DNA of 64,000 nt from an uncultured Acidobacteriota bacterium (GTDB taxonomy: Bacteria; Acidobacteriota; Thermoanaerobaculia; UBA5066): positions 1,056,001 through 1,120,000 of the forward strand of contig CAVZYA010000002.1 of the NCBI GenBank assembly GCA_963779415.1, given 5' to 3'. Under the pieces are notes generated by a model that searched no databases, was not told the origin of the DNA, and was given only the letters and a program-made list of their open reading frames with translations. The stretch's first letter is position 1; each line of letters starts with the position of its first letter. Positions 1-15,994 of this stretch are shown one piece after another. A program made the position numbers and the translations under genes.

Positions 1-700
1 AAGGACATCGAACTGGTGGAGTTCCCCTACGCGGATGACTGGTACAACGATCCGAAGATGCTGGATCCGATGGAGAATCCGTCCGAATTGTGGCTGAAGC
101 GCGACCACAAGCGCGACCTCGCCTTCCGTCCGTTGGAAACGGCCCTGGAAAAGGGCGTCATCGATGCGCTCTATTGTCAAAGCAAAGTGTTGAGCGTTCT
201 CGCCGAGGCAACCGGCAACTTCGTGTCCATTGAGGATTTGTCGAGGTATCCGGACTGGCGCCTGCAGGTGGCCAACATCCCGGCCGCGATCACGTGCAGC
301 GACGTGATGGCCGAGAAGCACCCCGAGCTGGCCGTCACGTTCATGAAGGGCATGATCAAGGTGGGGCGCTGGGCCAACGAGCACAAGCACGCGGCGGCGG
401 CGATCCTCGACAAGCAGACGTTTTACCTCGACGTCGAGGACACCTACCGGGGCATCAGAGACGTCGACATGGTGCCCAACCTGTCGCCGCAGAACCTGGC
501 CTCCGTGGAGATCGGGAAGAACTTCATGCTGAAGCATGGCTACATCAAGCGCGACTTCGACGTGCAGAAGTGGGCGGCTCCGGAGTTTCTCGAGCAGGCG
601 GCGCGGGAGCTCCTCGAAGCGCAGTGGAAGAAGACGACCACGGCGAAGCTCCCCGCGACGACTGAGCTGCAGGCGGCTTCCGCGGCGGGTCGGCTCGAGT
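1..700 (+). CDS. SsuA/THI5-fold substrate-binding-like protein, DszB (arylsulfinate desulfinase)-like; C-terminal part only, 3' end blurred by an indel
   Basis: The frame is open from the window edge. The C-terminus (..KHPELAVTFMKGMIKVGRWANEH..MVPNLS..NFMLKHGYIKRDFDVQKWAAPEFL) matches the SsuA/DszB-type class II binding-protein C-terminus as recalled (DszB ends ..DQWAAPEFL). The natural stop near 690-700 appears lost through extra bases. Confidence 0.6.
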
Positions 701-718
701 CGGAAGGGAGACAGATCC

Positions 719-2416
719 ATGAAAGTCATCATCGTGGGCGGAGTGGCGGGCGGAGCGTCGTGCGCGGCGCGGCTGCGCCGGCTGGACGAGAAGGCCGAGA
801 TCGTGATGGTGGAACGCGGGCCGTACCTCTCATACGCCAACTGCGGGCTGCCGTACCACGTCTCGGGCGTGATCGCCGAAGGAGTCGAGCCTCCTCGTGG
901 CCAACGAGCAGTACTTCAAGGCGAACCTCGGCGATCGACGCGCGGACGAACTGCGAGGCGGTCTCGATCGACCGGAAGAAGAAGACCGTCGGCCTGAAGA
1001 ACGTCAAGACCGGCGAGGTGACGACGGAGAAGTACGACAAGCTCGTCCTCTCGCCCGGGGCGCCTTCGGTCCGTCCGCCGCTTCCGGGGATCGACCTGCC
1101 CGGGATCTTCCAGGTGCGGACCGTGCCCGACGCGCGGGCGATCAAGGAGTGGATCGAGAAGGGGACGGTGTTCCTCGCCGGAATGTCCAACTACTCCGGG
1201 ATCCAGTTCGTCAAGCCGCCACGGCGCGCCGTCGTGATCGGCGGCGGGTTCATCGGCCTCGAGACGGCGGAGAACCTGATCCACGCGGGGTTCGAGGTGA
1301 CGCTCGTCGAGATGCTCGACCAGGTCCTCGCCCCGCTCGACCGCGAGTTCGCCCACCTCGTCGAGGAGCACCTGAAGAGGCACGGCATGACGGTCGCCCT
1401 CGGCGACGGCGTGGCCGGATTCACGCAGCTGGCGGGGGGCGCGATCGAGGTGAAGACGAAGTCCGGCAAGACGTACCCGGCCGACGTCGTGATCCTCGCC
1501 CTCGGCGTCCGGCCGGACACGACGCTCGCGAAGGCCGCCGGGCTCGAGATCGGCGAGCGCGGAGGGATCCGCGTCGACGACCAGATGCACACGAGCGACC
1601 CGGACATCTTCGCCGTCGGCGACGCCGTCGAGGTCAAGGACTGGGTGACGGGGCAGTGGAGCCTCGTGGCGCTCGCCGGGCCGGCGAACCGGCAGGGGCG
1701 GATCGCGGCCGACGTGATCGCCGGGCGCAAGTCCCGCTACCGCGGCACGCAGGGGACCTCGATCATCGGGCTCTTCGGCGGCGCCGCCGCCTGGACCGGC
1801 GTCAGCGAGAAGACGCTGAAGAAGAGCGGCGACACGGACTACGAGAAGATCTACATCTTCCCGAACTCGCACGCCGGCTACTACCCGGGCGCCAGGCTGA
1901 TCGGGCTGAAGTTCATCTTCCGGAAGTCCGACGGGCGGGTCCTCGGGGCGCAGGCGATCGGCGAGGACGCACCGGCGGTGGACAAGCGGATCAGCGCCCT
2001 CGCGATGGCCCTCCAGATGAAGGCGACGATCTACGACCTCGAGGAGGCCGAGCTCTGCTACGCGCCCCAGTTCGGCAGCGCGAAGGACGCGGTGAACTTC
2101 GCCGGGATGGTCGCGGCGGACGTCCTCCATGGGGACATGCCGCTCGCCCACTGGGACGAGACGAGAGGCGCGTTCCTCCTCGACGTGCGCCTGCCGGTCG
2201 AGCTCGTCGTCGAGAGCGTCCCCGGCGCCGTCAACATCCCGCTCCACCTGCTCCGCGCCCGCCTCGGCGAGGCTTCCGAAGGACCGGGAGATCCTCGTCA
2301 TCTGCCGCTCCGCCCAGCGCGCCTACTACGCGACGCGGGTCCTCCTGCAGAACGGATTCAAGGCCCGGAACATCTCGGGCGGCATGCTGTCGCGGGCCAT
2401 GCTTTCACCGCAGTAG
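719..2416 (+). CDS. CoA-disulfide/NADH persulfide reductase with C-terminal rhodanese domain (CoADR-RHD/Npsr-like), split by apparent frameshifts
   Basis: MKVIIVGGVAGGASCAARLRRL (FAD), SYANCGLPY redox Cys, GGGFIGLE (NADH), TSDPDIFAVGD, ELCYAPQF, rhodanese loop VICRSAQR. Pieces lie in different frames, with shifts near 880, 935 and 2270. Confidence 0.85.
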
Positions 2417-2449
2417 CAAGACACTGAACAAGGAATAGGAGAACAAACG

Positions 2450-4870
2450 ATGACAACCGCAGCTGCTTCCGAGAAGAGCACCACCGGCCGCGTCAAGGCC
2501 GACAGCGCCCGGATCGACCGGCTGAAAGAACAGCTCCTGAGCACGCCTCAGGCACTGGACAACGAGCGGGTCCGGATCATGGCGGAGGTCTACGAGGGAA
2601 CCGCCGGATACCAGCAGATCATCCGCAGGGCCAAGTTCTTCTCCGAGCTGATCGAGAGGAAGAAGCTCTACATCGACGAGAACCTCATCGTCGGCAGCAT
2701 GGCGAGCAGCGTGAACGCCGTCTACACGTACCCGGAGTGGAACGTGGAGTGGATGAAGGCAGAGAAGACCGTCGAGAAATCGAAGACCCCGGAAGACCGC
2801 AAGGCGAACCAGTGGGCGCTCGAGTACTGGGACAAGTGGGCGCTGCGCCCGCGGGCCGACGAGATCTTCATCAAGAAGTACGGCTTCGATCCGGACCCGG
2901 TCTACAAGGCGGGCCTCATCGCCGAGTTCATGTCCTGGCCAGGTGGCGGAGGCAACCTCAACTATCCCCGGGTCTACCGGGAGGGCCTCGCCAGCATGAT
3001 CAAGGAGGTCGAGGAGCGGCAGAAGGCCCTCGACATGCGGCTGCCGAACGCGCCCAAGTTCTACTTCTACGAGGCCTGCCTGATCACGATGACGGCCGTC
3101 ATCCGGCTGGCCAACCGCTACGCCGAGCTGGCCCGGGAGATGGCGGCCAAGGAGAAGAACGCGGACCGCAAGGCCGAGCTCATTGGCATCGCCGAGACCT
3201 GCAAGTGGGTGCCTGAGCATCCTGCCCGTAATCTGAGAGAAGCGATCCAGGCTCATTTCTTCTGTCATATCTGCGCAGAGATCGAGCAGGTGGGTTGCGG
3301 CTACTCGGAGGCCTACCTGGGCCAGAACCTCGAGCCGTTCTACCAGCGTGACAAGGCCGCGGGGCTGATCGGTCCCGATGAGGCGACCTACCTGCTGCAG
3401 CTGCTCTTCGTCAAGCTGAACGAGATCGGGTACTACTACGGAGAGCAGGTGGCTCTGCAGAACTCCGCCGACCTTGGCCAGAGCATCACGGTCGGCGGCT
3501 ACACCGAAGACGGAGACGATGCCACCGCGGAGATGGACTACAACATTCTCGACGCCGCGAAGTACCTGAAGCTGCCCCAGCCGCCCCTCTCCTGCTGCTA
3601 CACGGAGAAGATGAGCGGCAAGTTCCTGGAGAAGGTCCTCGACGTCATCGACACCGGCGTCGGCATGCCGCAGTTCGTGAACGGCGACGTGATGATCAAG
3701 CGGGCCCTCAACCTCTTCGCAGGGAGCAAGAACGGTCTCACGCTCGAGAAGGCACGACGGACCTGTATCGGCGCGTGCGTGGGAAGCTACATCCCGTACG
3801 AGACCGGGCATCCGGTGGAGGGGCAGCCGAACCTCGGAAAGGTCCTCGAGCTGACGCTGAACAACGGCTTCGACCCCCGGACCAAGGTGCAGATCGGCCC
3901 CAAGACCGGGGATCCCGAGAAGTTCAAGGACTTCGAGGAGCTGTACGCGGCTTTCGAAAAGCAGCTCCAGTTCTGCGAGGACACGCTCCGCCGCGAGGCA
4001 TGGATCGCGAGCATCCTCTGCGCCGAATACCTTCCCGTCGCCTGGCGCTCCATCCTGACGAAGGGGTGCATCGAGAGCGGAACCGAGGTCTGGAACGGCG
4101 GCGCCAACTACTACACGGTTGCCCAGATCACCGTCGGTGGCGTGGACGCCGCCAACGGGCTCATGGCGGTGAAGAAGCTGGTGTACGACGACAAGAAGCT
4201 GACGATGGCCGAGCTGAAGAAGGCGCTGGCGGCGAACTTCGAGGGCGAGTACGAGAAGGTCCGGAAGCTCTGCTACGAGGCCCCCAAGCACGGAAACGAC
4301 ATCCCCGAGGTCAACAAGTTCGTTCGCCGTGTGTACAACTCCATCTTCCAGGCGTTCCAGAACGTGGACGGCGGCGGTAACTACATCAGCCCGGACATCA
4401 GATCGGCCCCCGACTCCTACACCAAGAGCATCCACAACCTGATGGGTCTGGTGACGGGCGCCCTGCCGACCGGCAAGAAGGCCGGCGTAGCCCTCTGCGA
4501 TGGCAGCCTGTCCGCCATGCCCGGCACCGACGTCAACGGGCCGACCGCGCTGGTCATGTCCGCGGCAAAGGGCGCGGACGCGGTCAAGTTCACCGCGACG
4601 CACATGAACATGAAGCTCCCTCCCAACCAGCTCAAGACCCGCAAGGGCCGAGAGACCCTGCTGAACCTCGTCAAGACCTATATGGACAACGACGGCTATC
4701 ACATCCAGTTCAACGTGCTGGACACCAACATCCTGAAGGACGCGCAGAAGCACCCGGAGAAGTACCGCGACCTGGTCGTGCGGGTGGCGGGGTTCAGCGC
4801 CTTCTTCACGAAGCTGCACCCGGGTGTGCAGAACGAGATCATCGCCCGCACCGAGCAGAGCTTCGGTTGA
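2450..4870 (+). CDS. Glycyl radical enzyme, uncharacterised; resembles the arylacetate-decarboxylase clade rather than PFL
   Basis: 806 aa with RBS AGGAGA. Glycyl loop RVAGFSAFF (Gly781), HIQFNV, KHGND. Cys loop RRTCIGACVGSY (Cys443) lacks both the PFL CC pair and the eliminase CVE motif. Confidence 0.92.
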   Translation: MTTAAASEKSTTGRVKADSARIDRLKEQLLSTPQALDNERVRIMAEVYEGTAGYQQIIRRAKFFSELIERKKLYIDENLIVGSMASSVNAVYTYPEWNVEWMKAEKTVEKSKTPEDRKANQWALEYWDKWALRPRADEIFIKKYGFDPDPVYKAGLIAEFMSWPGGGGNLNYPRVYREGLASMIKEVEERQKALDMRLPNAPKFYFYEACLITMTAVIRLANRYAELAREMAAKEKNADRKAELIGIAETCKWVPEHPARNLREAIQAHFFCHICAEIEQVGCGYSEAYLGQNLEPFYQRDKAAGLIGPDEATYLLQLLFVKLNEIGYYYGEQVALQNSADLGQSITVGGYTEDGDDATAEMDYNILDAAKYLKLPQPPLSCCYTEKMSGKFLEKVLDVIDTGVGMPQFVNGDVMIKRALNLFAGSKNGLTLEKARRTCIGACVGSYIPYETGHPVEGQPNLGKVLELTLNNGFDPRTKVQIGPKTGDPEKFKDFEELYAAFEKQLQFCEDTLRREAWIASILCAEYLPVAWRSILTKGCIESGTEVWNGGANYYTVAQITVGGVDAANGLMAVKKLVYDDKKLTMAELKKALAANFEGEYEKVRKLCYEAPKHGNDIPEVNKFVRRVYNSIFQAFQNVDGGGNYISPDIRSAPDSYTKSIHNLMGLVTGALPTGKKAGVALCDGSLSAMPGTDVNGPTALVMSAAKGADAVKFTATHMNMKLPPNQLKTRKGRETLLNLVKTYMDNDGYHIQFNVLDTNILKDAQKHPEKYRDLVVRVAGFSAFFTKLHPGVQNEIIARTEQSFG

Positions 4871-4881
4871 CATTCAGCGGA

Positions 4882-4918
4882 GCCGGTACAGTGGGGCGGC
4901 CCGCCCCGCCGTACCGGC
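4882..4918 (+). terminator. Strong GC hairpin after the GRE gene (intercistronic stabiliser or weak terminator)
   Basis: GCCGGTACAGTGGGGCGG-C-CCGCCCCGCCGTACCGGC inverted repeat about 11 nt after the stop; no real U-tract. Confidence 0.55.
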
Positions 4919-5027
4919 CCATTCTTCACGAGCAGCCCGGCACGGTTGGACGAAGGACGACGACGGACAGCGACCGCACGAACACGAGAGGCAATTTGTG
5001 ATCAAAGAGATCGGCCATGGGAGTTTC

Positions 5028-6173
5028 ATGAGACGCATCGCAATCAACGTCGGCGCTGGCTACGTCCCGGGGCTGAATGCCGTGGTCAAGGGCGCGGCCC
5101 TGGCGGCGGGCAGGATGGGATGGGAGATCGTCGGCATCCGGGACGGATTCGACGGGCTGCTGCACCCGGAGCGCTACCCGGACGGCGGCCTGCTGACCCT
5201 CAGCCCCGAGCTGGTCGAGAACATCGATCCGGCCGGCGGGGGCTTCCTGGGCCAGTCGGGCCGGGTCGACCCGTTTCACGTCCGCCGGGTCAACGAAGAC
5301 GAGATGGTCGAGGAAGTCGACATGTCCGACGAGCTCCTTGCCGCGTTCCGGAAGGAGCAGCTCGATGCGCTGATCTCCGTCGTCGGGGGGCGCGGGCTGA
5401 GCATCCTCTACAAGCTCCACCGCAAGGGGCTCCATACGGTCTGCGTCCCCCGGTCGATCGAGAACGACATCGCCGCGACCGCGGTCTCTTTCGGCTTCAA
5501 CAGCGCGCTCAGCTTCACCATCGAGATGCTGGACCGGGCCCGTCAGGCGGCCCAGGCGGCCCGCAAGATCGGGGTGGTGGAGGTCCTGGGAGAGCAGTCC
5601 GGGTGGGTAGCGCTCCAGGCTGCCATCGCCGTCTGCGCCGATGCGGTCCTGATTCCCGAGATCCTCTGCGACCTCAAGGTGGTGGCGTCGCGGCTGAAGG
5701 ACAAGGTGTCGCTCCGGAGGCCGTACGGCCTGGTGGTGGTGGCCGAAGGGGCCAGGTTCCTCGAGACCTCGAAAGCCGAGGCGAAGCCTTCCTCCCTCAA
5801 GGCCTCTCTGTCGCCGCTGGCGACCGGGGATGCCAGCGAGCACGTCATCCACAGGTCGGGTCAGGCCGCCGAGAAGGTGGCGAACGGGCTGCAGCTTCTG
5901 CTCGCCGAGGAAACCTATCCGCTCGTCCTGGGGCCCTGGGTCAGGGGCGGCACTCCGACCGCGGTCGACCGCCAGCTGGGCCTCGGTTACGGGGCCGGAG
6001 CCGTGCGCGCCCTGAAGGCCGGCAAGAACGGGATGATGGTGGCGTTCGTTCCCCCGGACATGAAGTTCGTGCCGCTGACGGAAGCGATCAACAAGGTCAG
6101 GACCGTACCTGCGGACAGCGAGTTCATGCAGATCGCCCAGAGCCTCGGCATCTGCCTCGGGAAGGAGCTGTGA
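5028..6173 (+). CDS. 6-phosphofructokinase (PfkA)-fold protein with degenerate catalytic motifs
   Basis: The Pfk layout is retained (PGLNAVV, GIRDGFDGL, SFGFNSA, VVVAEGA, RGGTPTAVDR). Key motifs are changed: GGD->GAGY, GGDGS->GGRGL, KTIDND->RSIEND, MGR->LGE, GHxQRGG->GPWVRGG. Alternative GTG start at 4998. Confidence 0.8.
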   Translation: MRRIAINVGAGYVPGLNAVVKGAALAAGRMGWEIVGIRDGFDGLLHPERYPDGGLLTLSPELVENIDPAGGGFLGQSGRVDPFHVRRVNEDEMVEEVDMSDELLAAFRKEQLDALISVVGGRGLSILYKLHRKGLHTVCVPRSIENDIAATAVSFGFNSALSFTIEMLDRARQAAQAARKIGVVEVLGEQSGWVALQAAIAVCADAVLIPEILCDLKVVASRLKDKVSLRRPYGLVVVAEGARFLETSKAEAKPSSLKASLSPLATGDASEHVIHRSGQAAEKVANGLQLLLAEETYPLVLGPWVRGGTPTAVDRQLGLGYGAGAVRALKAGKNGMMVAFVPPDMKFVPLTEAINKVRTVPADSEFMQIAQSLGICLGKEL

Positions 6174-7135
6174 TGAGCACGCCCGTGAACCCATCCGCTC
6201 CGACCGGCTTCGTTCTGAACATCCAGCGCTATTGCAGTCACGACGGCCCGGGTATCCGCACGAACGTATTCCTCAAGGGTTGCTCGCTCCGCTGCAAGTG
6301 GTGCGGCAACCCCGAGAGCATCGCCTTCAAGCCCGAACTCTCCTACGACCCCAGGAAGTGCACCGGCAGGAAGGAATGCGGCGTCTGCCTGAAGCCTCCC
6401 TTCCCGGAAGGCGCCTTCTATGTGCCGGAAAACGCTGCCGACGACAAGGTCAAGGTCAACTGGGACCTGGCGACGGGCTGCGACGAGGCGATGGTCGCGC
6501 TGTGCGAGCCGGGCGCTCTCGAGATGTTCGGCAAGCGAATGACGGTGGACGAGGTCCTGGACGAGGTAGAGAAGGACAGCTCCTTCTACCGGAACACCGG
6601 GGGTGGCATGACGCTGAGTGGCGGCGAGTGCCTGCTGCAGCCGGACTTCGCGGCCGCCCTGCTGAAGGGGGCCCACGACCGCGGCTTCAACACGGCGATC
6701 GAAACGGCGTGCAACGTTCCCTGGGCGTACGTGGAGAAGGTGCTGCCCCACGTCGATACCGTCCTCCACGACCACAAGATGACGATCCCGGAGCGCCACA
6801 AGAAGTGGGTCGGAGTGAGTAACGAGCGGATCCTCACGAACTTCAAGAGAGCCTACGAGACGTTTCCAAACGCGGACTTCATCGCCAGGACGCCGCTGAT
6901 TCCGGGCATAAACGCCGACGAGGAGCACATCCGGGCCGTCCTGGCGTTCATTCGCCCGCACAAGAACGTCATCGACTACGAGCTGCTGCCGTACCACCGC
7001 TTCGGCCTCGGCAAGTACGAGCTGCTGGGCGAGGTGTACGAGCTGGACGACTACAAGACGCCGTCGGACGACTTGGTCAAGCACCTCCAGGCCATCATCG
7101 ACGAGGCCTTCGGCCGCAGCGGAGGCACCAAGTGA
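6173..7135 (+). CDS. Glycyl-radical enzyme activating protein (radical SAM)
   Basis: HDGPGIRTNVFLKGCSLRCKWCGNPES, GGMTLSGGE, AIETAC, ELLPYHRFG. The start overlaps the pfk-like stop (TGATG). Confidence 0.93.
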   Translation: MSTPVNPSAPTGFVLNIQRYCSHDGPGIRTNVFLKGCSLRCKWCGNPESIAFKPELSYDPRKCTGRKECGVCLKPPFPEGAFYVPENAADDKVKVNWDLATGCDEAMVALCEPGALEMFGKRMTVDEVLDEVEKDSSFYRNTGGGMTLSGGECLLQPDFAAALLKGAHDRGFNTAIETACNVPWAYVEKVLPHVDTVLHDHKMTIPERHKKWVGVSNERILTNFKRAYETFPNADFIARTPLIPGINADEEHIRAVLAFIRPHKNVIDYELLPYHRFGLGKYELLGEVYELDDYKTPSDDLVKHLQAIIDEAFGRSGGTK

Positions 7136-8280
7136 CACCTAACGAAGACATCTACGAAAGGCTGGCGGCGGCGCTGGAGGCGCTCCCGCACGGCTTCGCC
7201 CGCACGCCTTCGGGCGTGGAGATCAAGTTGATGAAGAAGGCCTTCACGGAGGAGGAGGTCCGGTTGGCCGGCCAACTCACCCGCACCCCCGAAACGGCTG
7301 CCGAGATCGCCAAGCGGTTGGGCCGGGATGTGGCCGAGGTCACCGCGCTGCTCGAGAGGCTGATTCCGCTGGGCCTGGTCTCGCTTCCCGGAAACACGGC
7401 GGGGGGGGGCGTTCTGAAAGAGGAAATGAAAGGCGAGAGGAGATACCGGCTGCGCCCGTTCATGGTGGGCTGGTACGAGGCCGGCATGCGCCGCCTTGAC
7501 AAGGAGTTCGCCGAGCTGTTCGAGCAGTTCATCACCGAAGGCGGGGGCGAGCGTGTCTTCGCGCCGCGACCGGGACTGCTGGGCGTGGTGCCGGTGCGAG
7601 GTTCGCTCAAGCCCGAGTATGTCAAGCGCGAGCCGCATATAGACATTGACGCCCACTTCCAGCGGCACGAGCGCTTTCTCGTCATCCCCTGCGTCTGCAA
7701 ACGGGAGCGGGAAGTCCTGGGGGACTCGTCCTGCGGGAAGCCCATGAAGCGTTGTGGATTCGTGGGACTGCCGCCCCAGACCCCGCTGGGCGAGACCGTG
7801 CTGGGCCGGGAGGAGGCGTCCAAGCTCCTCACCGAGCTCGGCGAGCAGGGTCACGTCAACCTCGCGTTCTACGGCTTCACCATGTTCGCGGATGCGCCGC
7901 AGTTCATGGGCACGTGCAACTGCTGCTCCTGCTGCTGCGGGATACTCCACGGCCCGAAGCTGGCCGGCCTGGAGTCCCACCAAGGGCCGCAGCCGTCGAA
8001 CTTCCGCGCTGTCATCGACCCGGAGGCGTGCATTGCATGCGGCGTCTGCCAGGAGCGTTGTCCGGTGGACGCGATCTCCGACATCACGGAGCCGGGCCCG
8101 ATCGAGGGGAAGTCACGCGTAGAGCGGGCAAAGTGCATCGGATGCGGAGTGTGCGTGATCGGCTGCGCATCCGACGCGATTGTGATGGAGCCGGTCTCCC
8201 CGGAGGAGTGGTTCCACGTCCCCTCCAGCATGGCGGAGTGGGAAGAGATGCGGCTGAAGAACTTGGCGTCACAGAAATGA
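7132..8280 (+). CDS. Fe-S protein: N-terminal HTH-like region, Cys-rich core, C-terminal 2x[4Fe-4S] ferredoxin
   Basis: PCVCK..C..C, CNCCSCCC, CIACGVCQERCP and CIGCGVCVIGCAS; GTGA overlap with the activase stop. Confidence 0.8.
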   Translation: MTPNEDIYERLAAALEALPHGFARTPSGVEIKLMKKAFTEEEVRLAGQLTRTPETAAEIAKRLGRDVAEVTALLERLIPLGLVSLPGNTAGGGVLKEEMKGERRYRLRPFMVGWYEAGMRRLDKEFAELFEQFITEGGGERVFAPRPGLLGVVPVRGSLKPEYVKREPHIDIDAHFQRHERFLVIPCVCKREREVLGDSSCGKPMKRCGFVGLPPQTPLGETVLGREEASKLLTELGEQGHVNLAFYGFTMFADAPQFMGTCNCCSCCCGILHGPKLAGLESHQGPQPSNFRAVIDPEACIACGVCQERCPVDAISDITEPGPIEGKSRVERAKCIGCGVCVIGCASDAIVMEPVSPEEWFHVPSSMAEWEEMRLKNLASQK

Positions 8281-9086
8281 GCGGGTGCAGCGCCCTCCTC
8301 TCTGGTCTTGCCATCCTCCTTGCCGCGGCCTTGCCCGCTCCGGTGAGCGCCCAGACTCAAGCGGAACCCGGCGGAGTGACGGCCCAGACGGAGGCCGACG
8401 CGAACAACCCCCTCGCCAAAGTCCAGGCATTCAACCTCCACGACTACTACGTCCCGACGCTCTCGGAGACTCCGGACCAGACCGCCAACACGTTCTGGCT
8501 CCGGTACGCACAGCCGGTTGGAGGGTTCCTGATCCGGGCGTCGCTGCCGCTGTCCCGGGTACCGGCGGGCGACGGCACCACGACGTCCGGGCTCGGCGAC
8601 TTCAATGCCTTCGCCGCCTACCTGTTCGACACAAAGCCGGGAGTGAGCTTCGGCCTGGGGCCGCAGGTGACGGCCCCCACCGCGACGGCTCACGAGACCG
8701 GGACAGGGAAGTGGCAGGGCGGCCTCGCCGCGGTCTACTTCGACGCGACGTCGCAGAGGGTCCAGTGGGGCGGGCTCGTCACCTGGCAGGCGGACTTCGC
8801 CGGCCCTTCCAACCGGCCCGGTACGAACGTCCTCGCCGTCCAGCCCTTCTACTTCATCCAACTCGGAAAGGGACTGTACGTGAGGAGCACGGCGGTGATG
8901 GCCTTCAATCTGGAGAATGGCTCGTACAACGTGCCCGTCGGCCTCGGCCTCGGCATGGTGATCCCGGCGGGCCGGACGGTCCTCAACGCGTTCGTGGAGC
9001 CGCAGTTCACGGTTCTTTCGCATGGCCCCGGCCAGCCGGAAGTGCAGATCTTCGTCGGCCTTAACACGCAGTTTCTGAAGAAGTAG
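8277..9086 (+). CDS. Putative outer-membrane beta-barrel or uptake protein with signal peptide
   Basis: Signal peptide MSGCSALLSGLAILLAAALPAPVSA, then ANNPLA, SGLGD, GTGKWQGG, alternating amphipathic strands and C-terminal NTQF; ATGA overlap with the upstream gene. Confidence 0.6.
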   Translation: MSGCSALLSGLAILLAAALPAPVSAQTQAEPGGVTAQTEADANNPLAKVQAFNLHDYYVPTLSETPDQTANTFWLRYAQPVGGFLIRASLPLSRVPAGDGTTTSGLGDFNAFAAYLFDTKPGVSFGLGPQVTAPTATAHETGTGKWQGGLAAVYFDATSQRVQWGGLVTWQADFAGPSNRPGTNVLAVQPFYFIQLGKGLYVRSTAVMAFNLENGSYNVPVGLGLGMVIPAGRTVLNAFVEPQFTVLSHGPGQPEVQIFVGLNTQFLKK

Positions 9087-9106
9087 CAGGGATGAGGAGA
9101 TAGTCG

Positions 9107-9991
9107 ATGTCGACCACCCTGACGCTCCTGTTCAAGATCACACTGGCGATCTTCATGGCGGGCAGCCTGCTGGAGATGGGCCTCCGGCTCAACCTCCAGG
9201 AGGCCTTCCGGGGGCTTCGCAACGTGCGCTTCGTGGCCTACACGCTGGTCTGGAGCTTCGTCCTCGTCCCCGCCCTCGCCTACGGGATCACACTCGTCAT
9301 CCCGCTGCAGGCCCCCTATGCCATCGGCCTCGTCCTTCTGGGCATGGCGCCCTGCGCGCCCTTTGTCCCCGGCCTCGTGGACAAGGCCAAGGGGGACCTT
9401 GGCTTCACGGCGGCCTTCATGCTCCTCGCCTCGGTCGGCACCGTCGTGTGCATGCCCTTTACGGTGCCTCTTCTCACCACGGGCCTGACCGCCAGCGCCT
9501 GGGCGATCGCCAAGCCCCTCCTGATCGTCGTCCTCCTGCCCATGGCAATCGGCGTCATCATCCGTCGTCAGGCGGATGCCTTCGCCTCCAAACTGCTCCC
9601 CTTCGCGAAGAAGCTCGCAGGGATCTTCGGCCTCCTCTGGTCCGTCCTGTGCCTCGTCATCTACGGGAAGGGCCTGCTCGGCGTGGCGGGCGAGTTCGCC
9701 CTCGCTTCGGAACTTCTCTTCTTCTGCGTGATCTTCCTGGGCACCTACTGGCTGGGCTTCGGCCTGCCCTATGAGCAGAAGATCGTGCTGAGCGTCGGGG
9801 TCACGACCCGGAACCTCGGCGCCTGTCTCACGCCGCTCCTCTCGGTGCCGGACATGGACCAGCGGGCCACGCTCATGATCGTGCTGGCGCTCCCCATCAT
9901 GGTCATCGTCTCGTTGCTGGGGGCGAAGTGGCTGGGCCCGGCGGCCGAACCGGGGTCCAAGACACCTGCGCCCGACCAGGCAAGTGCTTGA
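9107..9991 (+). CDS. Bile acid:Na+ symporter (BASS/ACR3) family transporter
   Basis: About 9 hydrophobic segments, MGLRL, APCAPFVP..AKGD, TRNLG. Confidence 0.8.
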   Translation: MSTTLTLLFKITLAIFMAGSLLEMGLRLNLQEAFRGLRNVRFVAYTLVWSFVLVPALAYGITLVIPLQAPYAIGLVLLGMAPCAPFVPGLVDKAKGDLGFTAAFMLLASVGTVVCMPFTVPLLTTGLTASAWAIAKPLLIVVLLPMAIGVIIRRQADAFASKLLPFAKKLAGIFGLLWSVLCLVIYGKGLLGVAGEFALASELLFFCVIFLGTYWLGFGLPYEQKIVLSVGVTTRNLGACLTPLLSVPDMDQRATLMIVLALPIMVIVSLLGAKWLGPAAEPGSKTPAPDQASA

Positions 9992-10082
9992 TGAGCCCCC
10001 AGCGCTCCTCCGCCGGCACCTCCCGATCCTGGAATGGGGGCCCAATACACCGGCAGGTTCTTGTTGATGGAGGGTTCACCGC

Positions 10083-11900
10083 ATGAGTGAAGGTGCTCCC
10101 GGCGTGCTTGCCATGATCAGCTGGCCCCGCCCGTTCGTGGGACTCCGGGGCATCAGGCTGGCCGACGTCCCCCGCGAGGTCTCGGCGGGCGTCACGCTGG
10201 CCGCCCTCATGATCCCGCTCAACATCGGTTACGCGCAGGTGGCCGGCCTGCCGCCCGTGGCCGGCCTCTACGCGGCCATCATTCCCCTGGCCGTCTTCGC
10301 CCTGCTGGCGAGTTCGCGCCACCTGGTGACGAGCCCCGACGCCTCCATGGCCACCCTGGTCGGTGCCACTCTGGTCGCCTTCGCTGCGCCCGGAGACCCG
10401 TTGCGCCTGCAGTACGCCCTCGCCCTGGCGATGGTCTGCGCGCTGCTGTTCTTCCTCTTCTGGATTTTCCGGTTGGCGTTCCTCGCCAACTTCCTGTCGC
10501 GCGCCGTGATGGCGGGGTTCATCACCGGGCTCGGGGTCGAGGTGTTCACGAACCAGGTGCGAAAGATCCTCGCCGCCCCCCACGTGGCGGGCGCCGCGAC
10601 AGGCGTGCTGGCGGCGGCCGAACGGATCAAGGACGTCATGGCGAGCTCGGTGAACACCGAGGGCTACTTCGTGGAGGTCGTCGCCCTGATCCACTCGATC
10701 CCCCGGGCCAACCTTTACTCGGTGGCGATCGGCGTCGCCGCCTTTCTGACCGTCCGCCTTCTCAAGCGCTTCGCGCCCAGGATCCCGGGGGCGCTGGTGG
10801 CGCTGGGGGTGCTCACGCTCGCCGTGGCTTACTTCAACCTCGCCCAAAAGGGGGTCGGCGTCCTCGGCGCGATTCCCTCGGGTCTTCCGACCCTGACCCT
10901 GCCGGCCATCCCTGCCGCCGACTACCTGAGGCTGTTTCCCGGCGCCATGGCGATTGTGGCGATCCTGCTGTGTGAGGGCCTGCTCGTGGTCCGCAGCTAC
11001 AGCAGCAAGTACGGATACAAGGCGGACGGCGATCAGATGTTGTTCGCCTACGGCGCGGCAAACCTCGCGGCCGGGTTTACCGGCTCGCTACTGACCGGCA
11101 ACAGCCCCTCCCGCTCGGCAGCGATGGACTCCTCGGGAGCGAAGAGCCAGCTGCCGAGCCTGGTGGCGGCCGGGACGATCGCCGTGGTCATGCTGTTCTT
11201 CACCGACATGCTCGCGTACCTGCCGAATGCGGCCCTGGCGGGGATCGTCGCCAATGCGGTGCTCTCCCTGATCGAGGTCCACGAGCTCGGCGAGCTGTGG
11301 CGGATGCGGCGTTCGGAGTTCTGGATCGCCGCCACCTGCCTCCTGAGCGTGCTGGCTCTGGGGCCGCTGCGCGCCGTCCTCATCGCCTTTCTCCTGTCCA
11401 CGATCGACGTCATCCGGCGGGCGTCCCGCCCGGAGACGGCGGCGCTGCTCGAAGCCGCGGACGGCAGCCATTTCGCCGCCACGGACCTGGGCCAGGGCGT
11501 CAGTCCGTCGGGCCTGGTCGTCTATCGGTTCGGCGCCCCGCTCTACTTCGCCAACGCGACCCTGTTTCTCGACGAGGTCGAGCAACTGATCGCCCGGGCG
11601 CCGACCCCGGTCCGCTGGTTCGTGCTGGACGCGCAGGCGATGGTCGACGTCGACACCACCGGCGCGGAGGTCCTTCGGCAGGCAATCACCTTGCTGACCG
11701 GGCGCGGCATCGTCTTCGCCGTCAGCCGCGCCGATCGGTCCTTCCGCTCCTGGCTGGAGCGATACGGGCTCATGAAGCTGATTGACCAGAAGCGCTTCTA
11801 CCCGACCAACCGCCACGCCGCGGCGGCGTTTCGCGAGGACTCGGGGCGCGAGGCGGAGCCGCCCGGAACGGCCTCGCCGCCTCTCCCTCAGGGTACGTGA
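10083..11900 (+). CDS. SulP/SLC26 anion permease with STAS domain
   Basis: AGVTLAALMIPLNIGYAQVAGLPPVAGLY, SPSRSA, YRFGAPLYFANA, DVDTTGAE. Confidence 0.92.
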   Translation: MSEGAPGVLAMISWPRPFVGLRGIRLADVPREVSAGVTLAALMIPLNIGYAQVAGLPPVAGLYAAIIPLAVFALLASSRHLVTSPDASMATLVGATLVAFAAPGDPLRLQYALALAMVCALLFFLFWIFRLAFLANFLSRAVMAGFITGLGVEVFTNQVRKILAAPHVAGAATGVLAAAERIKDVMASSVNTEGYFVEVVALIHSIPRANLYSVAIGVAAFLTVRLLKRFAPRIPGALVALGVLTLAVAYFNLAQKGVGVLGAIPSGLPTLTLPAIPAADYLRLFPGAMAIVAILLCEGLLVVRSYSSKYGYKADGDQMLFAYGAANLAAGFTGSLLTGNSPSRSAAMDSSGAKSQLPSLVAAGTIAVVMLFFTDMLAYLPNAALAGIVANAVLSLIEVHELGELWRMRRSEFWIAATCLLSVLALGPLRAVLIAFLLSTIDVIRRASRPETAALLEAADGSHFAATDLGQGVSPSGLVVYRFGAPLYFANATLFLDEVEQLIARAPTPVRWFVLDAQAMVDVDTTGAEVLRQAITLLTGRGIVFAVSRADRSFRSWLERYGLMKLIDQKRFYPTNRHAAAAFREDSGREAEPPGTASPPLPQGT

Positions 11901-11955
11901 TGTGACAACTCATCCCGAAGCAGGAGCCGACCCCACGTCGGCAGGAGGAATCAAG

Positions 11956-12387
11956 ATGTTGAAAAGACCGTCCACCACATTCTGGCTGATCGCCGCTCTG
12001 CTCCTCGCCGCCTCGCCCGCTGCCCTCGCCGGCGACCTGACGGGGACGAGCCGCTTCCTCTGCTCCGTCGTCAACGTCGGCCGGTGCGACGTCGACGGCT
12101 GCTGGGAGGACACTCCCGACGGCGCGCTCATCCCGCAGTTCGTCATCATCGACCTCGGGGCCAAGCTCCTCTCCACGACTGCGGCGAGCGGCCAGAACCG
12201 CTCCACCCCGATCGAGTCCGTCCGGCGCGATGGGGGCCTCATCGTCCTTCAGGGCCTCGAGAACGGCCGGGCTTTCAGCTTCGTCATCTCCGAGAAGTCG
12301 GGGAGCGCGTCAGTGGCCATCGCCCGGGAAGAGCTGGTCCTCGCCGTCTCGGCGGCCTGCACGCCCCTGCCGGCGTCCCAGAAGTAG
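11956..12387 (+). CDS. Secreted hypothetical protein with four Cys
   Basis: RBS GGAGG, signal peptide MLKRPSTTFWLIAALLLAASPAALA, FLC..RCDVDGC..AACTP. Confidence 0.65.
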   Translation: MLKRPSTTFWLIAALLLAASPAALAGDLTGTSRFLCSVVNVGRCDVDGCWEDTPDGALIPQFVIIDLGAKLLSTTAASGQNRSTPIESVRRDGGLIVLQGLENGRAFSFVISEKSGSASVAIAREELVLAVSAACTPLPASQK

Positions 12388-12405
12388 ATCAGGAGGAAAC
12401 ACACC

Positions 12406-12957
12406 ATGAAGAGAACCTTCGTCGCCATCCTGTGCCTGATCCTCGCCGGAGGCAGCCTCGTCCTCCTCGCGCAATCCTCCGGCCAGAAGTCCCTCGCCGC
12501 CACCCTCGGAGTCGCCGCCTTCCCGTCTGCCGGACAGAACGCCCAGCAGCAGTCGCAGGACGAGGCGGCCTGTTACAAGTGGGCGGTCCAGAACACGGGC
12601 ATCGACCCGTTCGAGGCCCAGAAACAGGGCGCGCAGGCGCAGCAGCAGGCCGCCCAGAACGCGCAGGCGGCCCAGTCGGCCGGACAGGGCGCCGCGGTGC
12701 AGGGGGCGGCCCGGGGCGCTGCGGCCGGCGCCCTCATCGGAGCAGCCGCCGGCGACGCCGGAACCGGCGCCGCGGTGGGCGCGGCGACGGGAGCAGTCGC
12801 GGGGCGGAGGAAGAAGAAACAGGCGGAGGCGTCGGCGACGCAGCAGGCGCAGGCCCAGGGCCAGCAGGCGCAGCAGGCCACGGCCCAGCAGATGCAGAGC
12901 TTCAAGAAGGCCTTCTGCGCCTGCCTCGAAGGGAAGAAGTACATCGCCAAGTACTGA
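12406..12957 (+). CDS. Secreted glycine-zipper (YMGG-like) protein
   Basis: Signal peptide, GQNAQQQSQDEAACYKWA, GAARGAAAGALIGAAAGDAGTGAAVGA, CLEGKKY. Confidence 0.8.
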   Translation: MKRTFVAILCLILAGGSLVLLAQSSGQKSLAATLGVAAFPSAGQNAQQQSQDEAACYKWAVQNTGIDPFEAQKQGAQAQQQAAQNAQAAQSAGQGAAVQGAARGAAAGALIGAAAGDAGTGAAVGAATGAVAGRRKKKQAEASATQQAQAQGQQAQQATAQQMQSFKKAFCACLEGKKYIAKY

Positions 12958-13368
12958 GCCGGCGGGAGCCGATGCTCGAAACGACCCTCGCCCGGGCGGC
13001 CCTGGTCTTCGCCGCGCTCGTCGGAGCCTCGCTCCTTCGCGCCGACGAGTCGGAGCAGCCCCGAATCTCACCGACCCGGCGAAGATTGAATCAAACGCGA
13101 GGTCATGCCCCGCTACGTGGGGGAAACGGCACGATCCTGATGGCCGAAGACGCGCCTTCACCTGTGGATCGTCTCGAGAGCCCTCTCGAGTTCGAGGTGC
13201 TGCTGGCGGGCCGCATGGTGGCCGTTTCTTCGCTCGGGGATCTGCCGGTGAAGACCGCCCCAGATCGGGAAAACGCCCGGCTTTCCCGGGTGAGATGGCC
13301 CCCGGCAAAGCCCTTTGCGCCCCGACAGGACCACGACCAGAAAATAGCCCCCGGCAGTTCAGAACGGA

Positions 13369-13389
13369 CATTGGACCTTGGTCTAACAC
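13369..13389 (-). promoter_or_regulatory. Palindromic operator copy 1 (GTGTTAGACCAAGGTCCAATG on minus strand)
   Basis: 19/20 identical to the copy at 16539-16558; lies just downstream of the FixJ-like gene. Confidence 0.6.
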
Positions 13390-13410
13390 CTGTCCGCCGT
13401 CCGGGCCCAC

Positions 13411-14031
13411 TCAGGAGGAGCGGGGTCTGACCCGCTGAGCGAGCCGGACGAGGTCGGCGAGGGAGGCCGCCTTCATCTTCTCCATCACGCGGGCCCGGTG
13501 GACCTTGATCGTCTTCTCCACGGTCCCGAGCCGGCCCGCGATCTGCTTGTTCAGCTCGCCCGAGACAACATGCTCGAGAACCTCCCGCTCCCGCGGCGTC
13601 AACGTCTCGAGCCGCTCTCGGATCGACGCGACCTCGGCTCTCTCTTCCCGCGCTACGACGTCTCTTTCCATCGCCCGGCGGATGGCCGCGAGGAGATCCT
13701 CGTCCTCGACCGGCTTCGTCAGGAAATCCGCCGCGCCACGTTTCATGGCCTGGACGGTCGCCGGGACGTCGGCCCGGCCCGTGAGGAAGATGACGGGCAG
13801 AAGGCAGCCACGCTTCTCGAGCTCCTGCTGAATCTCCAGCCCGCTCATCTGTGGCATCGACATGTCCAGGACGAGGCAGCCGGGCGCCCCCGGATCGAGC
13901 TGGTCGAGGAACTCGCGCGGGGACGAAAACGTCGCGACGGGGAAGCCCTCCGAGCGGAGGAGCCGCGCGACGGCTTTCAATACGTGCAGTTCGTCGTCGA
14001 CGACGGTAACCGTCGGGAGGCTGCCCTTCAT
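13411..14031 (-). CDS. FixJ/NodW/StyR-family response regulator (REC + LuxR HTH)
   Basis: VVDDE, CLVLDMSMP, IFLTG, DFLTKP, LTPREREVL..NKQIA..TIKVHRARVMEKM. Confidence 0.95.
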   Translation of the reverse strand: MKGSLPTVTVVDDELHVLKAVARLLRSEGFPVATFSSPREFLDQLDPGAPGCLVLDMSMPQMSGLEIQQELEKRGCLLPVIFLTGRADVPATVQAMKRGAADFLTKPVEDEDLLAAIRRAMERDVVAREERAEVASIRERLETLTPREREVLEHVVSGELNKQIAGRLGTVEKTIKVHRARVMEKMKAASLADLVRLAQRVRPRSS

Positions 14032-15896
14032 GTCCGACCGGAAGATGCGGGGAGGACGAGGTGGAAGGTCGCCCCGGGTACTCCCTCCTCGTTGTTCGAG
14101 GCCCGGATCTCGCCGTCGTGAGCGCTGACGATCGTCCGGCAGACGGCCAGGCCGAGGCCGAGCCCCTGCGGCTTCGTCGTGACGAACGGCTCGAAGATCG
14201 CGGCGAGCCGGTCGCCGGGGATGCCGCAGCCGCGGTCCGAGATCGAGACCCGAACCCTCCCGTCGCCATTCCGCTCCGTCCTCACAAGCAGCCGGCGCTC
14301 GGCGGGCGTCACCGCCGACATCGCGTCGCTGCCGTTCATCAGGAGGTTGAGGATCACCTGCTGGAGCTGGATGCGGTCGCCGTTCACGGCCGGGAGATCG
14401 GGCGCGAACTCCGCGCTCACGGCCACGCCGTGGTTCGCTAGGTCGCTTCGCATGATCTTCAGGACCTCCCGCACCAGCTCGGAGATGTCGAGGGGATTGC
14501 GATGCACCTCCACGTTTTTCAGCATCAGCCGCAGACGCTGGATCACCTCACCGGCGCGCCGGTCCTGATCCACGATGTCCTTCAGGATCTCGCGCGCCTC
14601 GTCCACGTCAGGCTCGCTCCGGGCCAGGAGGCGCTGGACGGCCTGCGCGTTGCTGAGGATCGCCGTCAGGGGCTGGTTCAGCTCGTGGGCGAGCGATCCC
14701 GACAGCTCGCCGATCGTCGAGACGCGGGAGAGGTGCGCGAGCTGGCTGTGCTGCTGGAGAAGGACCTGCTCCGCATCCTTGAGCGGCGTGATGTCGAGAG
14801 AGACGCCGTAGGCCCGCGCGGGCGATCCCCCGGGCGCCCGCTCCACGGCCCCTCGCGCCGCGATCCAACGGGTCCGGCCATCGGGACGCACGATCCGGTA
14901 ATCCGTCTTGAACTCGCCGGAACCGGCGAGGGTCTCCTCGATCAACAGACGCACCCGATCCTGGTCATCGCCGTGAATGGTGCCGAGGAATTCCGCGAGG
15001 TCGACCGGCGCGCCATCCTCGATGCCGTAGAGGACCCGGCCGCCGGGGGTGATCCAGATCGCGTCGCTCGGGATGTCCCACGTCCAGAGCGCCAGATCCG
15101 CCGCCTTCGCGGCGAGGCTCATCCTCCGCTCGCGCTCCCGCACCTCCGCCTCGCTCGCTTGGAGCTCCCGGGCCAGGTTTTTCGCCCGGACGATCTCCGC
15201 GCCGAGCTCCTGACCCATCGAGAGCAGGACCCCGAGGTAGGCGAAGGTGAGGAAGTAGGGCGAGCGGAGCCTTCCCTCGTGGATGAAGGCCACGTGCGTC
15301 GTCGCCACGAACATGAAGAAGAACATGCCGCCACACACCGTCAGGGCGCGGCGTCGGTCCCCACGCCGCCAGACCTCCACCCCTGCGTCGACGACGAAGG
15401 CCAGGAAGAGAAAGGCGCTGAACTGGGAGACCCGGACCCAGGGGTTCACGATACCTTCAGGGACCCAGACGGTTTCCCCGAGGAAGGGGGCGGGAATCGC
15501 CCGCTCGATCGCCGTGAAACTGAGGTTGGTCGGTGACAGGAAGTTCAGGACGAGCGAGGAGACGGCCCTCGTCCCGATCGCCGCCCACGCGAGCCAGGGC
15601 CGTCCGGCGCCGAGGTAGAGGCGGACGAACCCGACGAGAGCGCAGATGGTGATCGCCAGGGGAACGTGCGCCCACCGGATGAGAACGGTCATTCGCTCGG
15701 GGGTGCTCTCCCGCATGACCCAGAGCTCGAGGACGCCGAGCACCGCGTTGGAGATGGAAGCCGTCGCGAAGAGCAGATGAGACCAGGACGTCCGGTCGCT
15801 CGCCCACACGAGCAGGTTCAGAAGGGCGAGCGTCAAGCAGGCCGAGATGGCCGCGGACCACGCAGCCGTGACCCAACTGAAGGGCATCGCGGGCAT
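14028..15896 (-). CDS. Membrane PAS sensor histidine kinase (FixL/TodS-like)
   Basis: About 7 TM helices at the N-terminus, PAS/PAC (DYRIVRPDGRTRWIAARG), H-box SLAHELNQPL, QQVILNLLMN, DRGCG, GLGLGL. Confidence 0.93.
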   Translation of the reverse strand: MPAMPFSWVTAAWSAAISACLTLALLNLLVWASDRTSWSHLLFATASISNAVLGVLELWVMRESTPERMTVLIRWAHVPLAITICALVGFVRLYLGAGRPWLAWAAIGTRAVSSLVLNFLSPTNLSFTAIERAIPAPFLGETVWVPEGIVNPWVRVSQFSAFLFLAFVVDAGVEVWRRGDRRRALTVCGGMFFFMFVATTHVAFIHEGRLRSPYFLTFAYLGVLLSMGQELGAEIVRAKNLARELQASEAEVRERERRMSLAAKAADLALWTWDIPSDAIWITPGGRVLYGIEDGAPVDLAEFLGTIHGDDQDRVRLLIEETLAGSGEFKTDYRIVRPDGRTRWIAARGAVERAPGGSPARAYGVSLDITPLKDAEQVLLQQHSQLAHLSRVSTIGELSGSLAHELNQPLTAILSNAQAVQRLLARSEPDVDEAREILKDIVDQDRRAGEVIQRLRLMLKNVEVHRNPLDISELVREVLKIMRSDLANHGVAVSAEFAPDLPAVNGDRIQLQQVILNLLMNGSDAMSAVTPAERRLLVRTERNGDGRVRVSISDRGCGIPGDRLAAIFEPFVTTKPQGLGLGLAVCRTIVSAHDGEIRASNNEEGVPGATFHLVLPASSGRT

Positions 15897-15974
15897 GATT
15901 CTAGGCCTCCCTCTCGTCCCCCCGAGCACGCCCTGGGGGGACTCCCGCCCGAAGCACCTGCGGCAGGCCGAGCA

Positions 15975-15994
15975 CATTGGACCAAGGTCCAATG
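15975..15994. promoter_or_regulatory. Palindromic operator copy 2 (perfect CATTGGACC-AA-GGTCCAATG)
   Basis: 9-bp perfect arms in the divergent intergenic region between the kinase and the stand-alone receiver gene. Confidence 0.65.

Follow-up and report, generated by a model that had tools for sequence, protein, structure and literature searches.

A gene cluster built round a glycyl radical enzyme (GRE) was characterised in a 64,000-nt stretch of DNA (the window) covering positions 1056001-1120000 of contig CAVZYA010000002.1 from an uncultured Acidobacteriota bacterium, whose 4.36 Mb genome consists of three contigs and is 92% complete. The cluster occupies positions 1-11900 of the window and is best explained as one copy of a horizontally spread module built round the GRE. 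We consider it highly probable that this is a real and undescribed GRE system in which a protein with the PfkA fold (the PFK-like protein) is the partner of the GRE activase (AE). An organosulfur compound as the substrate of the GRE has about even chances, and the whole explanation, which joins the module, the activase partner, the organosulfur substrate, and the cleavage of a C-S bond, falls slightly short of that. Every gene of the cluster lies on the + strand, and Pfam and NCBIfam profile searches confirmed the row. The genes encode, in order, a DszB-like protein, a CoA-disulfide/persulfide reductase fused to a rhodanese (CoADR-rhodanese), the GRE, the PFK-like protein, the AE, an Fe-S protein, an outer-membrane beta-barrel candidate, a transporter of the bile acid:sodium symporter (BASS) family, and a SulP-family anion permease. 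The same co-directional row had been described in an earlier reading made without database searches (the sequence-only reading), together with overlapping stop and start codons at 6173, 7132, and 8277. Both descriptions are confirmed here, the overlaps being TGATG at 6171-6175, GTGA at 7132-7135, and ATGA at 8277-8280.

The GRE (2450..4870, +, 806 aa) matches the PFL-like and Gly_radical families of Pfam with 492.1 and 96.3 bits, respectively. The glycyl motif RVAGFS is located at residues 778-783, with Gly781, and agrees with the superfamily pattern RVxG[FWY]. The form RVAGF[SC] is found in 68 of the 79 family sequences, and the remaining 11 are gaps or one broken sequence. The thiyl Cys443 lies within G-A-C-V-G and is kept in all 79 sequences, and in alignments with HypD, glycerol dehydratase, and propanediol dehydratase it stands opposite their catalytic Cys. 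The closest PDB matches are HypD, the glycerol and propanediol dehydratases, CutC, and HpyG/HpzG, which were matched over the full length with E values of 4.9e-126 to 1e-101. The GRE passes none of the NCBIfam equivalog cut-offs. The best match is HypD (NF043068; 495.5 bits against a cut-off of 1100), and the PFL2-3 subfamily (472 against 678.2), HpsG (421.7 against 1000), and CutC (382.2 against 1050) were also matched below their cut-offs. A search for the HpsG family in this genome and 14 control genomes found no member above the cut-off.

The active site of the GRE differs from those of its characterised relatives. The CXE motif is absent from all 79 family sequences, which have CVG (70 sequences) or CVP (9 sequences) instead. 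In the HMMER alignments, GACVG stands opposite SGCVE of HypD and GCVE of glycerol dehydratase, and WPGGGGNLNY stands opposite RAPGH of HypD and GVGH of glycerol dehydratase. The position of the CXE Glu is Gly445, and that of the active-site His of the dehydratases (His164 in glycerol dehydratase, His160 in HypD) is Gly168, which is Gly in all 74 non-gap family sequences. A June 2026 review of GREs states that all six C-O eliminases, CutC (C-N), the C-S lyases, and three isomerases retain CXE (PMC13450708). In these alignments, the GRE is without the two acid/base residues of all known eliminases and isomerases. Because no NCBIfam equivalog cut-off is passed and the CXE motif is absent, the GRE is assigned to an undescribed subfamily outside every characterised family, as had been proposed in the sequence-only reading.

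The second GRE of the genome is a true HypD (NF043068, 1194.6 bits against 1100) with a CVE loop, located at G000:C1:1567738-1570080 (L084:1501-3843, -). The activase of this second GRE adjoins the HypD gene and has two full CX2CX2CX3C auxiliary motifs. The GRE of the cluster shares ~34% identity with this HypD in BLASTP, which gave the same residue mapping as HMMER. From HypD to the GRE, the His becomes Gly168, the Glu becomes Gly445, Tyr450 becomes Gln459, Thr645 becomes Lys659, and Arg156 becomes Pro164, with the roles of the HypD residues taken from PMC7077986. Other residues of the GRE are strongly conserved. Cys283 is kept in 76 of 76 non-gap sequences, all 79 sequences have Gln459, Glu451, and His454, and of the 74 sequences without a gap at position 659, 71 have Lys and three have Arg there. 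Cys283, Gln459, and Lys659 map to positions that line the HypD pocket, and Lys659 is a conserved Lys where HypD binds a carboxylate. The equivalent of Cys283 is uncertain, as this residue stands opposite HypD Asp278 in HMMER but two residues before Asp278 in BLASTP.

The relatives of the GRE were collected by a scan of one genome per GTDB species. The scan yielded 113 relatives, of which the best 80 were kept (67-97% identity), all from metagenome-assembled genomes (MAGs). According to the record titles, these genomes belong to more than 10 phyla, which include Acidobacteriota, Planctomycetota, Nitrospiraceae, Bacteroidota, Verrucomicrobiota, Gemmatimonadota, Actinomycetota, Aminicenantes, and several proteobacterial classes. 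The family is common in genomes from soil, peat, wetland, and sediment. The PFK-like gene was found by tblastn in 75 of the 80 loci, and the five loci without it end at or just past the GRE gene. The arrangement is far beyond chance, and only loci that are cut off near the GRE gene lack the PFK-like gene. In the same 80 loci, tblastn found the activase in 71, CoADR in 50, the DszB-like protein in 39, BASS in 38, the Fe-S protein in 29, and SulP in 28, and nearly all of these neighbours are on the GRE strand. Co-conservation of the neighbourhood had been set beforehand as the check on the sequence-only reading, and the counts for PFK-like (75/80), CoADR (50/80), and DszB-like (39/80) genes agree with it.

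The PFK-like gene (5028..6173, +, 381 aa; Pfam PFK, 200.2 bits) is tied more closely to the gene of the AE (6173..7135, +, 320 aa), a radical S-adenosylmethionine (SAM) enzyme that matches TIGR02494 with 313.9 bits (cut-off 174.35). Wherever both genes are present (70 loci), it adjoins the AE gene, whereas it adjoins the GRE gene in 69 of 75. Five loci have it beside the AE gene alone, and none has it beside the GRE gene alone. The PFK-like protein scores below all NCBIfam PFK cut-offs (best 240.4 against 430.55). Compared with PfkA structures, GGDG has become GGRG, TIDND has become SIEND, MGR has become LGE, and the His of the fructose 6-phosphate (F6P) site has become Pro. We take the roles of these elements to be those in E. 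coli PfkA, where GGDG is the Mg-ATP loop and TIDND holds the catalytic Asp. Among the relatives, R, Q, P, or K takes the place of the GGDG Asp, and most have Glu instead of the catalytic Asp of TIDND. Because the former GGDG Asp varies in this way, this position is free of selection for metal-ATP binding. Invariant D81, F83, V85, R86, E96, and D98 mark an insertion at residues 81-98 of the PFK-like protein that is specific to the family.

The AE has an invariant CX3CX2C motif at Cys37, Cys41, and Cys44, as is typical of activases. Its auxiliary insert has five Cys (63, 69, 72, 103, and 111), compared with eight in the HypD activase of the same genome. Its best NCBIfam match is the HpsG activase HpsH, with 344.1 bits against a cut-off of 430. 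A model of the complex of the AE and the PFK-like protein, built from our own alignments of 39 rows per protein, received a score of 0.63, compared with 0.00 for the best of three controls. The mark of 0.63 is reached by 58 of 80 solved complexes and by two of 110 mismatched pairs, a rough calibration only, as our own alignments were used. At least 60% of the contacts agree among three runs, and the pLDDT of the partner is at least 82. We know of no solved complex of a PFK with a radical SAM enzyme that could account for this result. On the PFK-like side, the modelled interface is made up of insertion residues 81-96 together with residues 122-129, the decayed GGDG loop. The AE contributes residues 37-40, 80-101, 181-183, and 214-219, of which 80-101 lie where the HypD activase carries its second CX2CX2CX3C motif. 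The model supports binding of the two proteins but falls short of demonstrating it. Since the AE interface 80-101 sits at the missing second motif, the pseudo-kinase may replace or compensate for the lost auxiliary cluster of the AE. The sequence-only reading had listed the PFK-like protein as one more accessory enzyme. This claim is not upheld, as the present evidence favours a partner protein of the activase that has no catalytic role.

Two or three PFK-like paralogues are found in some genomes (L016, L068, L007, L071, L025, and L074), in which the extra copies are followed by the gene for the winged helix-turn-helix (wHTH)/Fe-S protein. Five of six extra copies adjoin such a gene. Since these copies precede wHTH/Fe-S genes, the pseudo-kinase may pair with more than one Fe-S protein. 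In the cluster itself, the wHTH/Fe-S gene (7132..8280, +, 382 aa) encodes a weakly matched wHTH, a Cys-rich segment (CNCCSCCC), and a ferredoxin domain with two [4Fe-4S] motifs. Three other observations on the PFK-like protein were rejected. Apparent fusions of the PFK-like and AE genes in L025 and L042 were set aside, as the in-frame read-through looks like late 1-nt frame changes in long-read MAGs. The 712-aa database protein P0005 (PFK and Radical_SAM) was set aside as a fusion, as its PFK part leaves the frame ~55 residues before the end. Plasmid carriage was also dropped, as a tblastn search of 72,556 plasmids with the PFK-like protein as query gave true PFKs alone, all below 60% identity and ~30-34% identical among the matches listed.

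The connection of the cluster with sulfur was assessed in the long loci, which are the 49 of the 80 loci with a length of at least 20 kb. Their open reading frames (ORFs) were clustered with coverage filters, and sulfur genes were counted within 10 kb. The long loci contain CoADR in 39, any rhodanese domain in 42, the DszB-like protein in 26, and BASS or SulP in 30, and stand-alone rhodaneses are recurrent neighbours. With a rhodanese domain in 42 of the 49 long loci, the sulfur link of the locus, though statistical, is real.

The DszB-like protein, which has the SsuA fold, begins 504 nt before the window at L083:14497 (L083 being the 15 kb stretch upstream), and the 3' two thirds of its gene occupy 1..~700 (+). 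Pfam gave no match for this protein, and SsuA_fam was matched weakly. Its sole significant PDB match is DszB (2de2; E 8.9e-12, 47.6 bits), which aligns over nearly the full length (residues 30-368 with 23-360 of DszB). In this alignment, the Cys, His, and Arg in NCP, PHY, and RFGG of the DszB-like protein stand opposite those in NCP, VHF, and RFGG of DszB, and all three are kept in 33 of 33 orthologues. They are Cys27, His60, and Arg70 of DszB, which we take to be its sulfinate-site or catalytic residues. The DszB-like call of the sequence-only reading is strengthened beyond a mere fold match. The DszB-like protein has no signal peptide and is cytoplasmic. Two further neighbours, an enoyl-CoA hydratase in 13 loci and a ferredoxin-nitroreductase fusion in 8, mostly come directly after the DszB-like gene.

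The CoADR-rhodanese (719..2416, +; Pyr_redox_2, 186.8 bits; Pyr_redox_dim, 49 bits) has the domains of its type, namely FAD/NAD(P) disulfide-reductase domains with the redox Cys and a C-terminal rhodanese. The outer-membrane beta-barrel candidate (8277..9086, +, 269 aa) has a signal peptide, no Pfam match, and no known family. In agreement with the sequence-only reading, its gene starts at the ATG at 8277 and uses frame 3, which is the conserved frame, with 62-80% identity to ORFs in six related loci. The ORF at 8285-9064 in frame 2 was rejected as the barrel gene and is a shadow, with 50-62% identity in relatives. Long shadow ORFs are frequent in the window because its GC content is 63-71%. 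The BASS transporter (9107..9991, +) matches SBF with 78.2 bits, and the SulP permease (10083..11900, +) matches Sulfate_transp with 263.7 bits and STAS with 42.7 bits. The NCBIfam matches of these two transporters include DauA, BicA, and PanS, all under the cut-off.

We propose the following mechanism for the module. The PfkA-fold protein would be a non-catalytic subunit that docks on the AE loop replacing the lost cluster motif, and the docked protein would stabilise or gate the activase. The GRE would take an H atom from an organosulfur anion that Lys659 holds in place, and the C-S bond would then break by beta-scission without acid/base help. If the sulfur product is a sulfinate, the DszB-like desulfinase would convert it to sulfite, and if it is sulfane sulfur, the rhodanese and CoADR-rhodanese proteins would convert it to sulfide. 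The outer-membrane channel, BASS, and SulP would transport the substrate and sulfur anions. The boldest form of this proposal, in which the PfkA-fold pseudo-kinase is a new obligatory GRE-activase subunit docking at the lost [4Fe-4S] motif and base-free radical C-S cleavage is new to the superfamily, for example releasing a sulfinate, thiyl, or persulfide fragment, is tentative and rather doubtful.

Several findings weigh against this explanation. The complex of the AE and the PFK-like protein is a prediction, and invariant columns are only modestly enriched in its interface on the PFK-like side (8/22, compared with 83/381 overall). No residue pattern in the GRE singles out a substrate. According to PMC13450708, the C-S lyases IslA/IseG/HpsG anchor the sulfonate by two Arg and one Gln, which are Arg189, Gln193, and Arg678 in IslA. 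By offset from the Cys only, Arg189 and Gln193 fall in the P164-G168 stretch (PGGGG), and Arg678 falls near Thr658/Lys659, which suggests that the known IslA sulfonate anchor is not kept as far as its first two residues are concerned. Sulfur genes are missing within 10 kb in five of the 49 long loci, and the DszB-like protein (26/49) and SulP (17/49) are far from universal in them. Sulfinate and carboxylate are near in shape, and the DszB-like protein might use an aromatic acid. The SulP and BASS families carry non-sulfur anions too. In the window itself, three 1-nt insertions disrupt the frame of the CoADR-rhodanese gene. Among the related GRE-bearing genomes, 40 of the 80 were searched for dsrA, which passes the cut-off in no more than 8 of them, plus one split copy. 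The sulfur handling proposed in the sequence-only reading holds for the rhodanese domain (42/49) and fails as a universal feature for the DszB-like protein and SulP. The interpretation offered there is partly supported overall, its Kolbe-type desulfination or desulfonation being a conjecture.

Some of these findings would be expected if the GRE acts on a non-sulfur anion, such as an aromatic or aliphatic carboxylate. The DszB-like protein would then be of a decarboxylase type, and the rhodanese and CoADR-rhodanese would be a defence against reactive sulfur species that is co-induced in sulfidic, anoxic habitats. A CoADR-rhodanese and rhodaneses reportedly form a persulfide-stress operon in Enterococcus. 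Indoleacetate decarboxylase is the third-best NCBIfam match of the GRE (443.9 bits), an outer-membrane gene of the Phenol_MetA_deg family is found in six loci, SulP and BASS are not specific to sulfur, and all sulfur genes are absent from the five long loci mentioned above. However, the rhodanese is found in 42 of the 49 long loci from many phyla, mostly on the GRE strand, which is tighter than co-regulation by habitat predicts, and a desulfinase is the sole relative of the DszB-like protein with a solved structure. The Cys-loop Glu is also absent from this GRE, whereas PMC13450708 gives Glu505 and Glu637 as the proposed residues of HPAD and Glu502 as that of IAD. We therefore regard a non-sulfur anion as unlikely, and an organosulfur substrate is preferred.

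The conserved Cys283 raises a different possibility, in which the GRE is a radical reductase like ribonucleotide reductase (RNR). Cys443 and Cys283 would give two electrons, for example in reductive desulfonation or dehydroxylation, and the disulfide or persulfide would be re-reduced by the rhodanese and the CoADR-rhodanese with NAD(P)H. This would suit a second invariant Cys that lies at or within two residues of HypD Trp277-Asp278, a pyridine-nucleotide disulfide reductase in 39 of the 49 long loci, and a GRE without eliminase-type acid/base residues. However, the pairing of Cys283 with Cys443 is read from a sequence alignment, CoADR is absent from 10 of the 49 long loci, and no recurrent thioredoxin-like gene was found among the annotated gene families, which makes such a reductase quite improbable. 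That the PFK-like protein is an active kinase of new specificity, making a phosphorylated (sulfo)sugar that the GRE cleaves (compare YbiW/PflD on anhydro-sugar phosphates), is very improbable: the PfkA family does include the sulfofructose (SF) kinase SqiK of the sulfo-EMP2 pathway (PMC9594981), GRE isomerases do act on sugar 6-phosphates (PMC13450708), and a GH63/MGH1-like protein (~915 aa; GH63/MGH1-like 'hypothetical' clusters alone in an Atlas look-up) and a glucose-dehydrogenase-like alcohol dehydrogenase do occur in 17 of the 80 loci and in 8 loci, respectively, but the kinase motifs described above are decayed with an unconserved GGDG Asp, all NCBIfam PFK cut-offs are missed, and the gene tracks the activase and not the GRE, with extra copies that track an Fe-S protein. 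Arsenic, glucosinolate, ergothioneine, and DMSP-type readings were dropped, as no supporting genes are present among the annotated neighbour families, no dedicated search for these readings having been made.

The insertions in the CoADR-rhodanese gene, which the sequence-only reading overlooked, are located near 875, 933, and 2271. Compared with an intact orthologue of 589 aa, the gene consists of four frame segments (719-874, 876-920, 934-2271, and 2267-2407). Each segment lacks stops in its own frame, and identity to the orthologue is 82-94%. The protein as a whole is 82% identical to this orthologue, and both SYANCGLPYH and the rhodanese C-terminus emerge when the frames are read together. 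The gene is intact in locus L061 (91.6% identical), which has one base fewer at each of the three junctions, and contigs of relatives in four public metagenome or metatranscriptome runs also lack 1 nt at 875, 933, and 2271. The DszB-like frame has no stop in this assembly and reads on into the CoADR-rhodanese gene to 2427, and the DszB-like gene of L061 ends in TAA where the window has none (661-720). Because the segments remain similar to the orthologue and stop-free in their proper frames, and because the relatives lack the three insertions, an assembly error is probably a likelier origin than recent decay. Two of the three extra bases adjoin GATC, a hint of base-calling errors linked to methylation in an assembly of long reads. 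The source strain itself is in no public run, with 0.21 as the best share of sampled words. Contigs from sediment metatranscriptomes (runs X2 and X18) map with 90-99% likeness to the CoADR-rhodanese of relatives (window 600-2500), and these RNA-library contigs are a weak hint of expression of the relatives' gene.

The end of the cluster was set at 11900 because the next ORF (12406-12957), which encodes a Gly-zipper protein, recurs in one of 80 related loci alone and is probably outside the cluster. A histidine kinase with 7TMR-DISM, PAS, and HisKA domains is located just beyond the cluster (14028-16004, -). Upstream of the DszB-like gene are a second barrel-like gene with a signal peptide, a GAF-PAS-HisKA_3 histidine kinase with a LuxR-type response regulator and a CheY-like receiver (L083:9746-11940 and 13115-13612), and an AbiEii-type nucleotidyltransferase toxin gene between the regulators and the cluster (L083:11975-12826, -). 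A kinase (28/49 long loci) and a LuxR-type regulator (18/49) recur upstream of the GRE across many phyla, and because of this recurrence the pair is probably a dedicated regulator of the cluster. A sigma-54 activator replaces the pair in a few Acidobacteria. A DUF3300-DUF2950 protein (L083:3576-5789, -) is also encoded upstream, and this protein or pair (c47/c48) recurs near the cluster in several Acidobacteria loci, which is probably lineage synteny. Other recurrent neighbours include the SAM synthetase MetK (11 loci), a small ferredoxin, an FNR-type reductase, a glutamate-type dehydrogenase (7 loci), and several outer-membrane proteins. MetK, the ferredoxin, and the FNR-type reductase would fit a self-contained supply line for the activase.

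Elsewhere in the genome, dsrA (572.4 bits, cut-off 392.85) and an adjoining dsrB-like gene are found at G000:C1:710337-712548 (L086 and L087). The host may reduce sulfite or sulfate or may oxidise sulfur, and sulfite could be respired in this organism, where dsrAB is present. Sulfite respiration as a general purpose of the module was rejected on the count of 8 in 40 other carriers given above.

GREs are the main known means by which anaerobes break inert C-H, C-C, C-N, C-O, and C-S bonds, and every new GRE subfamily to date has opened a new pathway. The family described here is strongly conserved (67-97% identity across phyla), and catalytic residues that all of its characterised relatives have in common are missing from it. 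A decayed glycolytic kinase fold tied to an activase is a type of partner unreported for GREs. Poor solubility of activases, noted in PMC13450708, is a practical bottleneck, and the PFK-like partner may bear on it. If the pseudo-kinase subunit and base-free C-S cleavage are true, soil and sediment bacteria of more than 10 phyla would have an O2-independent route into the abundant organosulfur pool. If the substrate is an organosulfur anion, the GRE would supply a missing anaerobic step of the terrestrial sulfur cycle. The GRE system has an active site and a partner of new types. The residue conservation of the DszB-like protein, the frame-broken CoADR-rhodanese gene, the comparison with HypD of the same genome, the adjacency counts, and the lost cluster motif at the modelled interface are new in this work.

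The sequence-only reading held that no GRE locus of this composition had been described, and this agrees with the full-text literature searched, including sections of the June 2026 review (PMC13450708), where no description of this GRE system was found, subscription papers and supplements being outside this scope. Those sections also list no GRE with a kinase-fold partner. Like HypD (PDB 6VXC/6VXE), the glycerol and propanediol dehydratases, CutC, and HpyG/HpzG, the GRE belongs to the ten-stranded barrel family (Pfam), and it has the same glycyl motif and an equally placed thiyl Cys. As in the loci of PFL2-type eliminases, an activase with an auxiliary insert is encoded close to the GRE. However, PFL2-type eliminases have CXE and the active-site His, whereas this GRE has CVG and Gly together with a PFK-like partner gene. 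The loci of IslA/IseG and HpsG are similar to this cluster in that the GRE gene is accompanied by sulfur-handling and anion-transport genes, and the AE is nearest to HpsH. However, IslA and HpsG keep CXE, which is absent here. An alcohol or aldehyde dehydrogenase of the IslA/HpsG kind was not identified in these loci, which also have no bacterial microcompartment (BMC) shell genes. A search of the whole genome, at its 92% completeness, gave no BMC shell domain.

Among the multisubunit GREs, PMC13450708 lists the gamma subunit of HPAD, the beta and gamma subunits of BSS, and the beta, gamma, and delta subunits of MASS, whose role may be stability or gating. These systems need an extra protein that is encoded between the GRE and activase genes, and the PFK-like gene has a similar position. 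However, their subunits are small HiPIP-like or rubredoxin-like Fe proteins that bind the GRE, whereas the PFK-like protein is a 381-aa PfkA fold without a Cys cluster motif and is predicted to bind the AE. No HiPIP-like Fe-S subunit of the X-succinate synthase/HPAD type was found among the annotated recurrent neighbour families, which cover ORFs of 90 aa or more. The DszB-like protein aligns with DszB (PDB 2DE2) over the full length, shares its Cys, His, and Arg, and is cytoplasmic like DszB, but it differs in its low overall similarity and in its occurrence in anaerobic GRE loci without the DszA or DszC monooxygenases. The PFK-like protein has the same fold as PfkA (PDB 1PFK and 1ZXX), with Pfam PFK matched over residues 71-397 of the long ORF and ~30-34% identity to true PFKs, but it differs from PfkA in its decayed kinase motifs and in the family-specific insertion that lies in the predicted AE interface.

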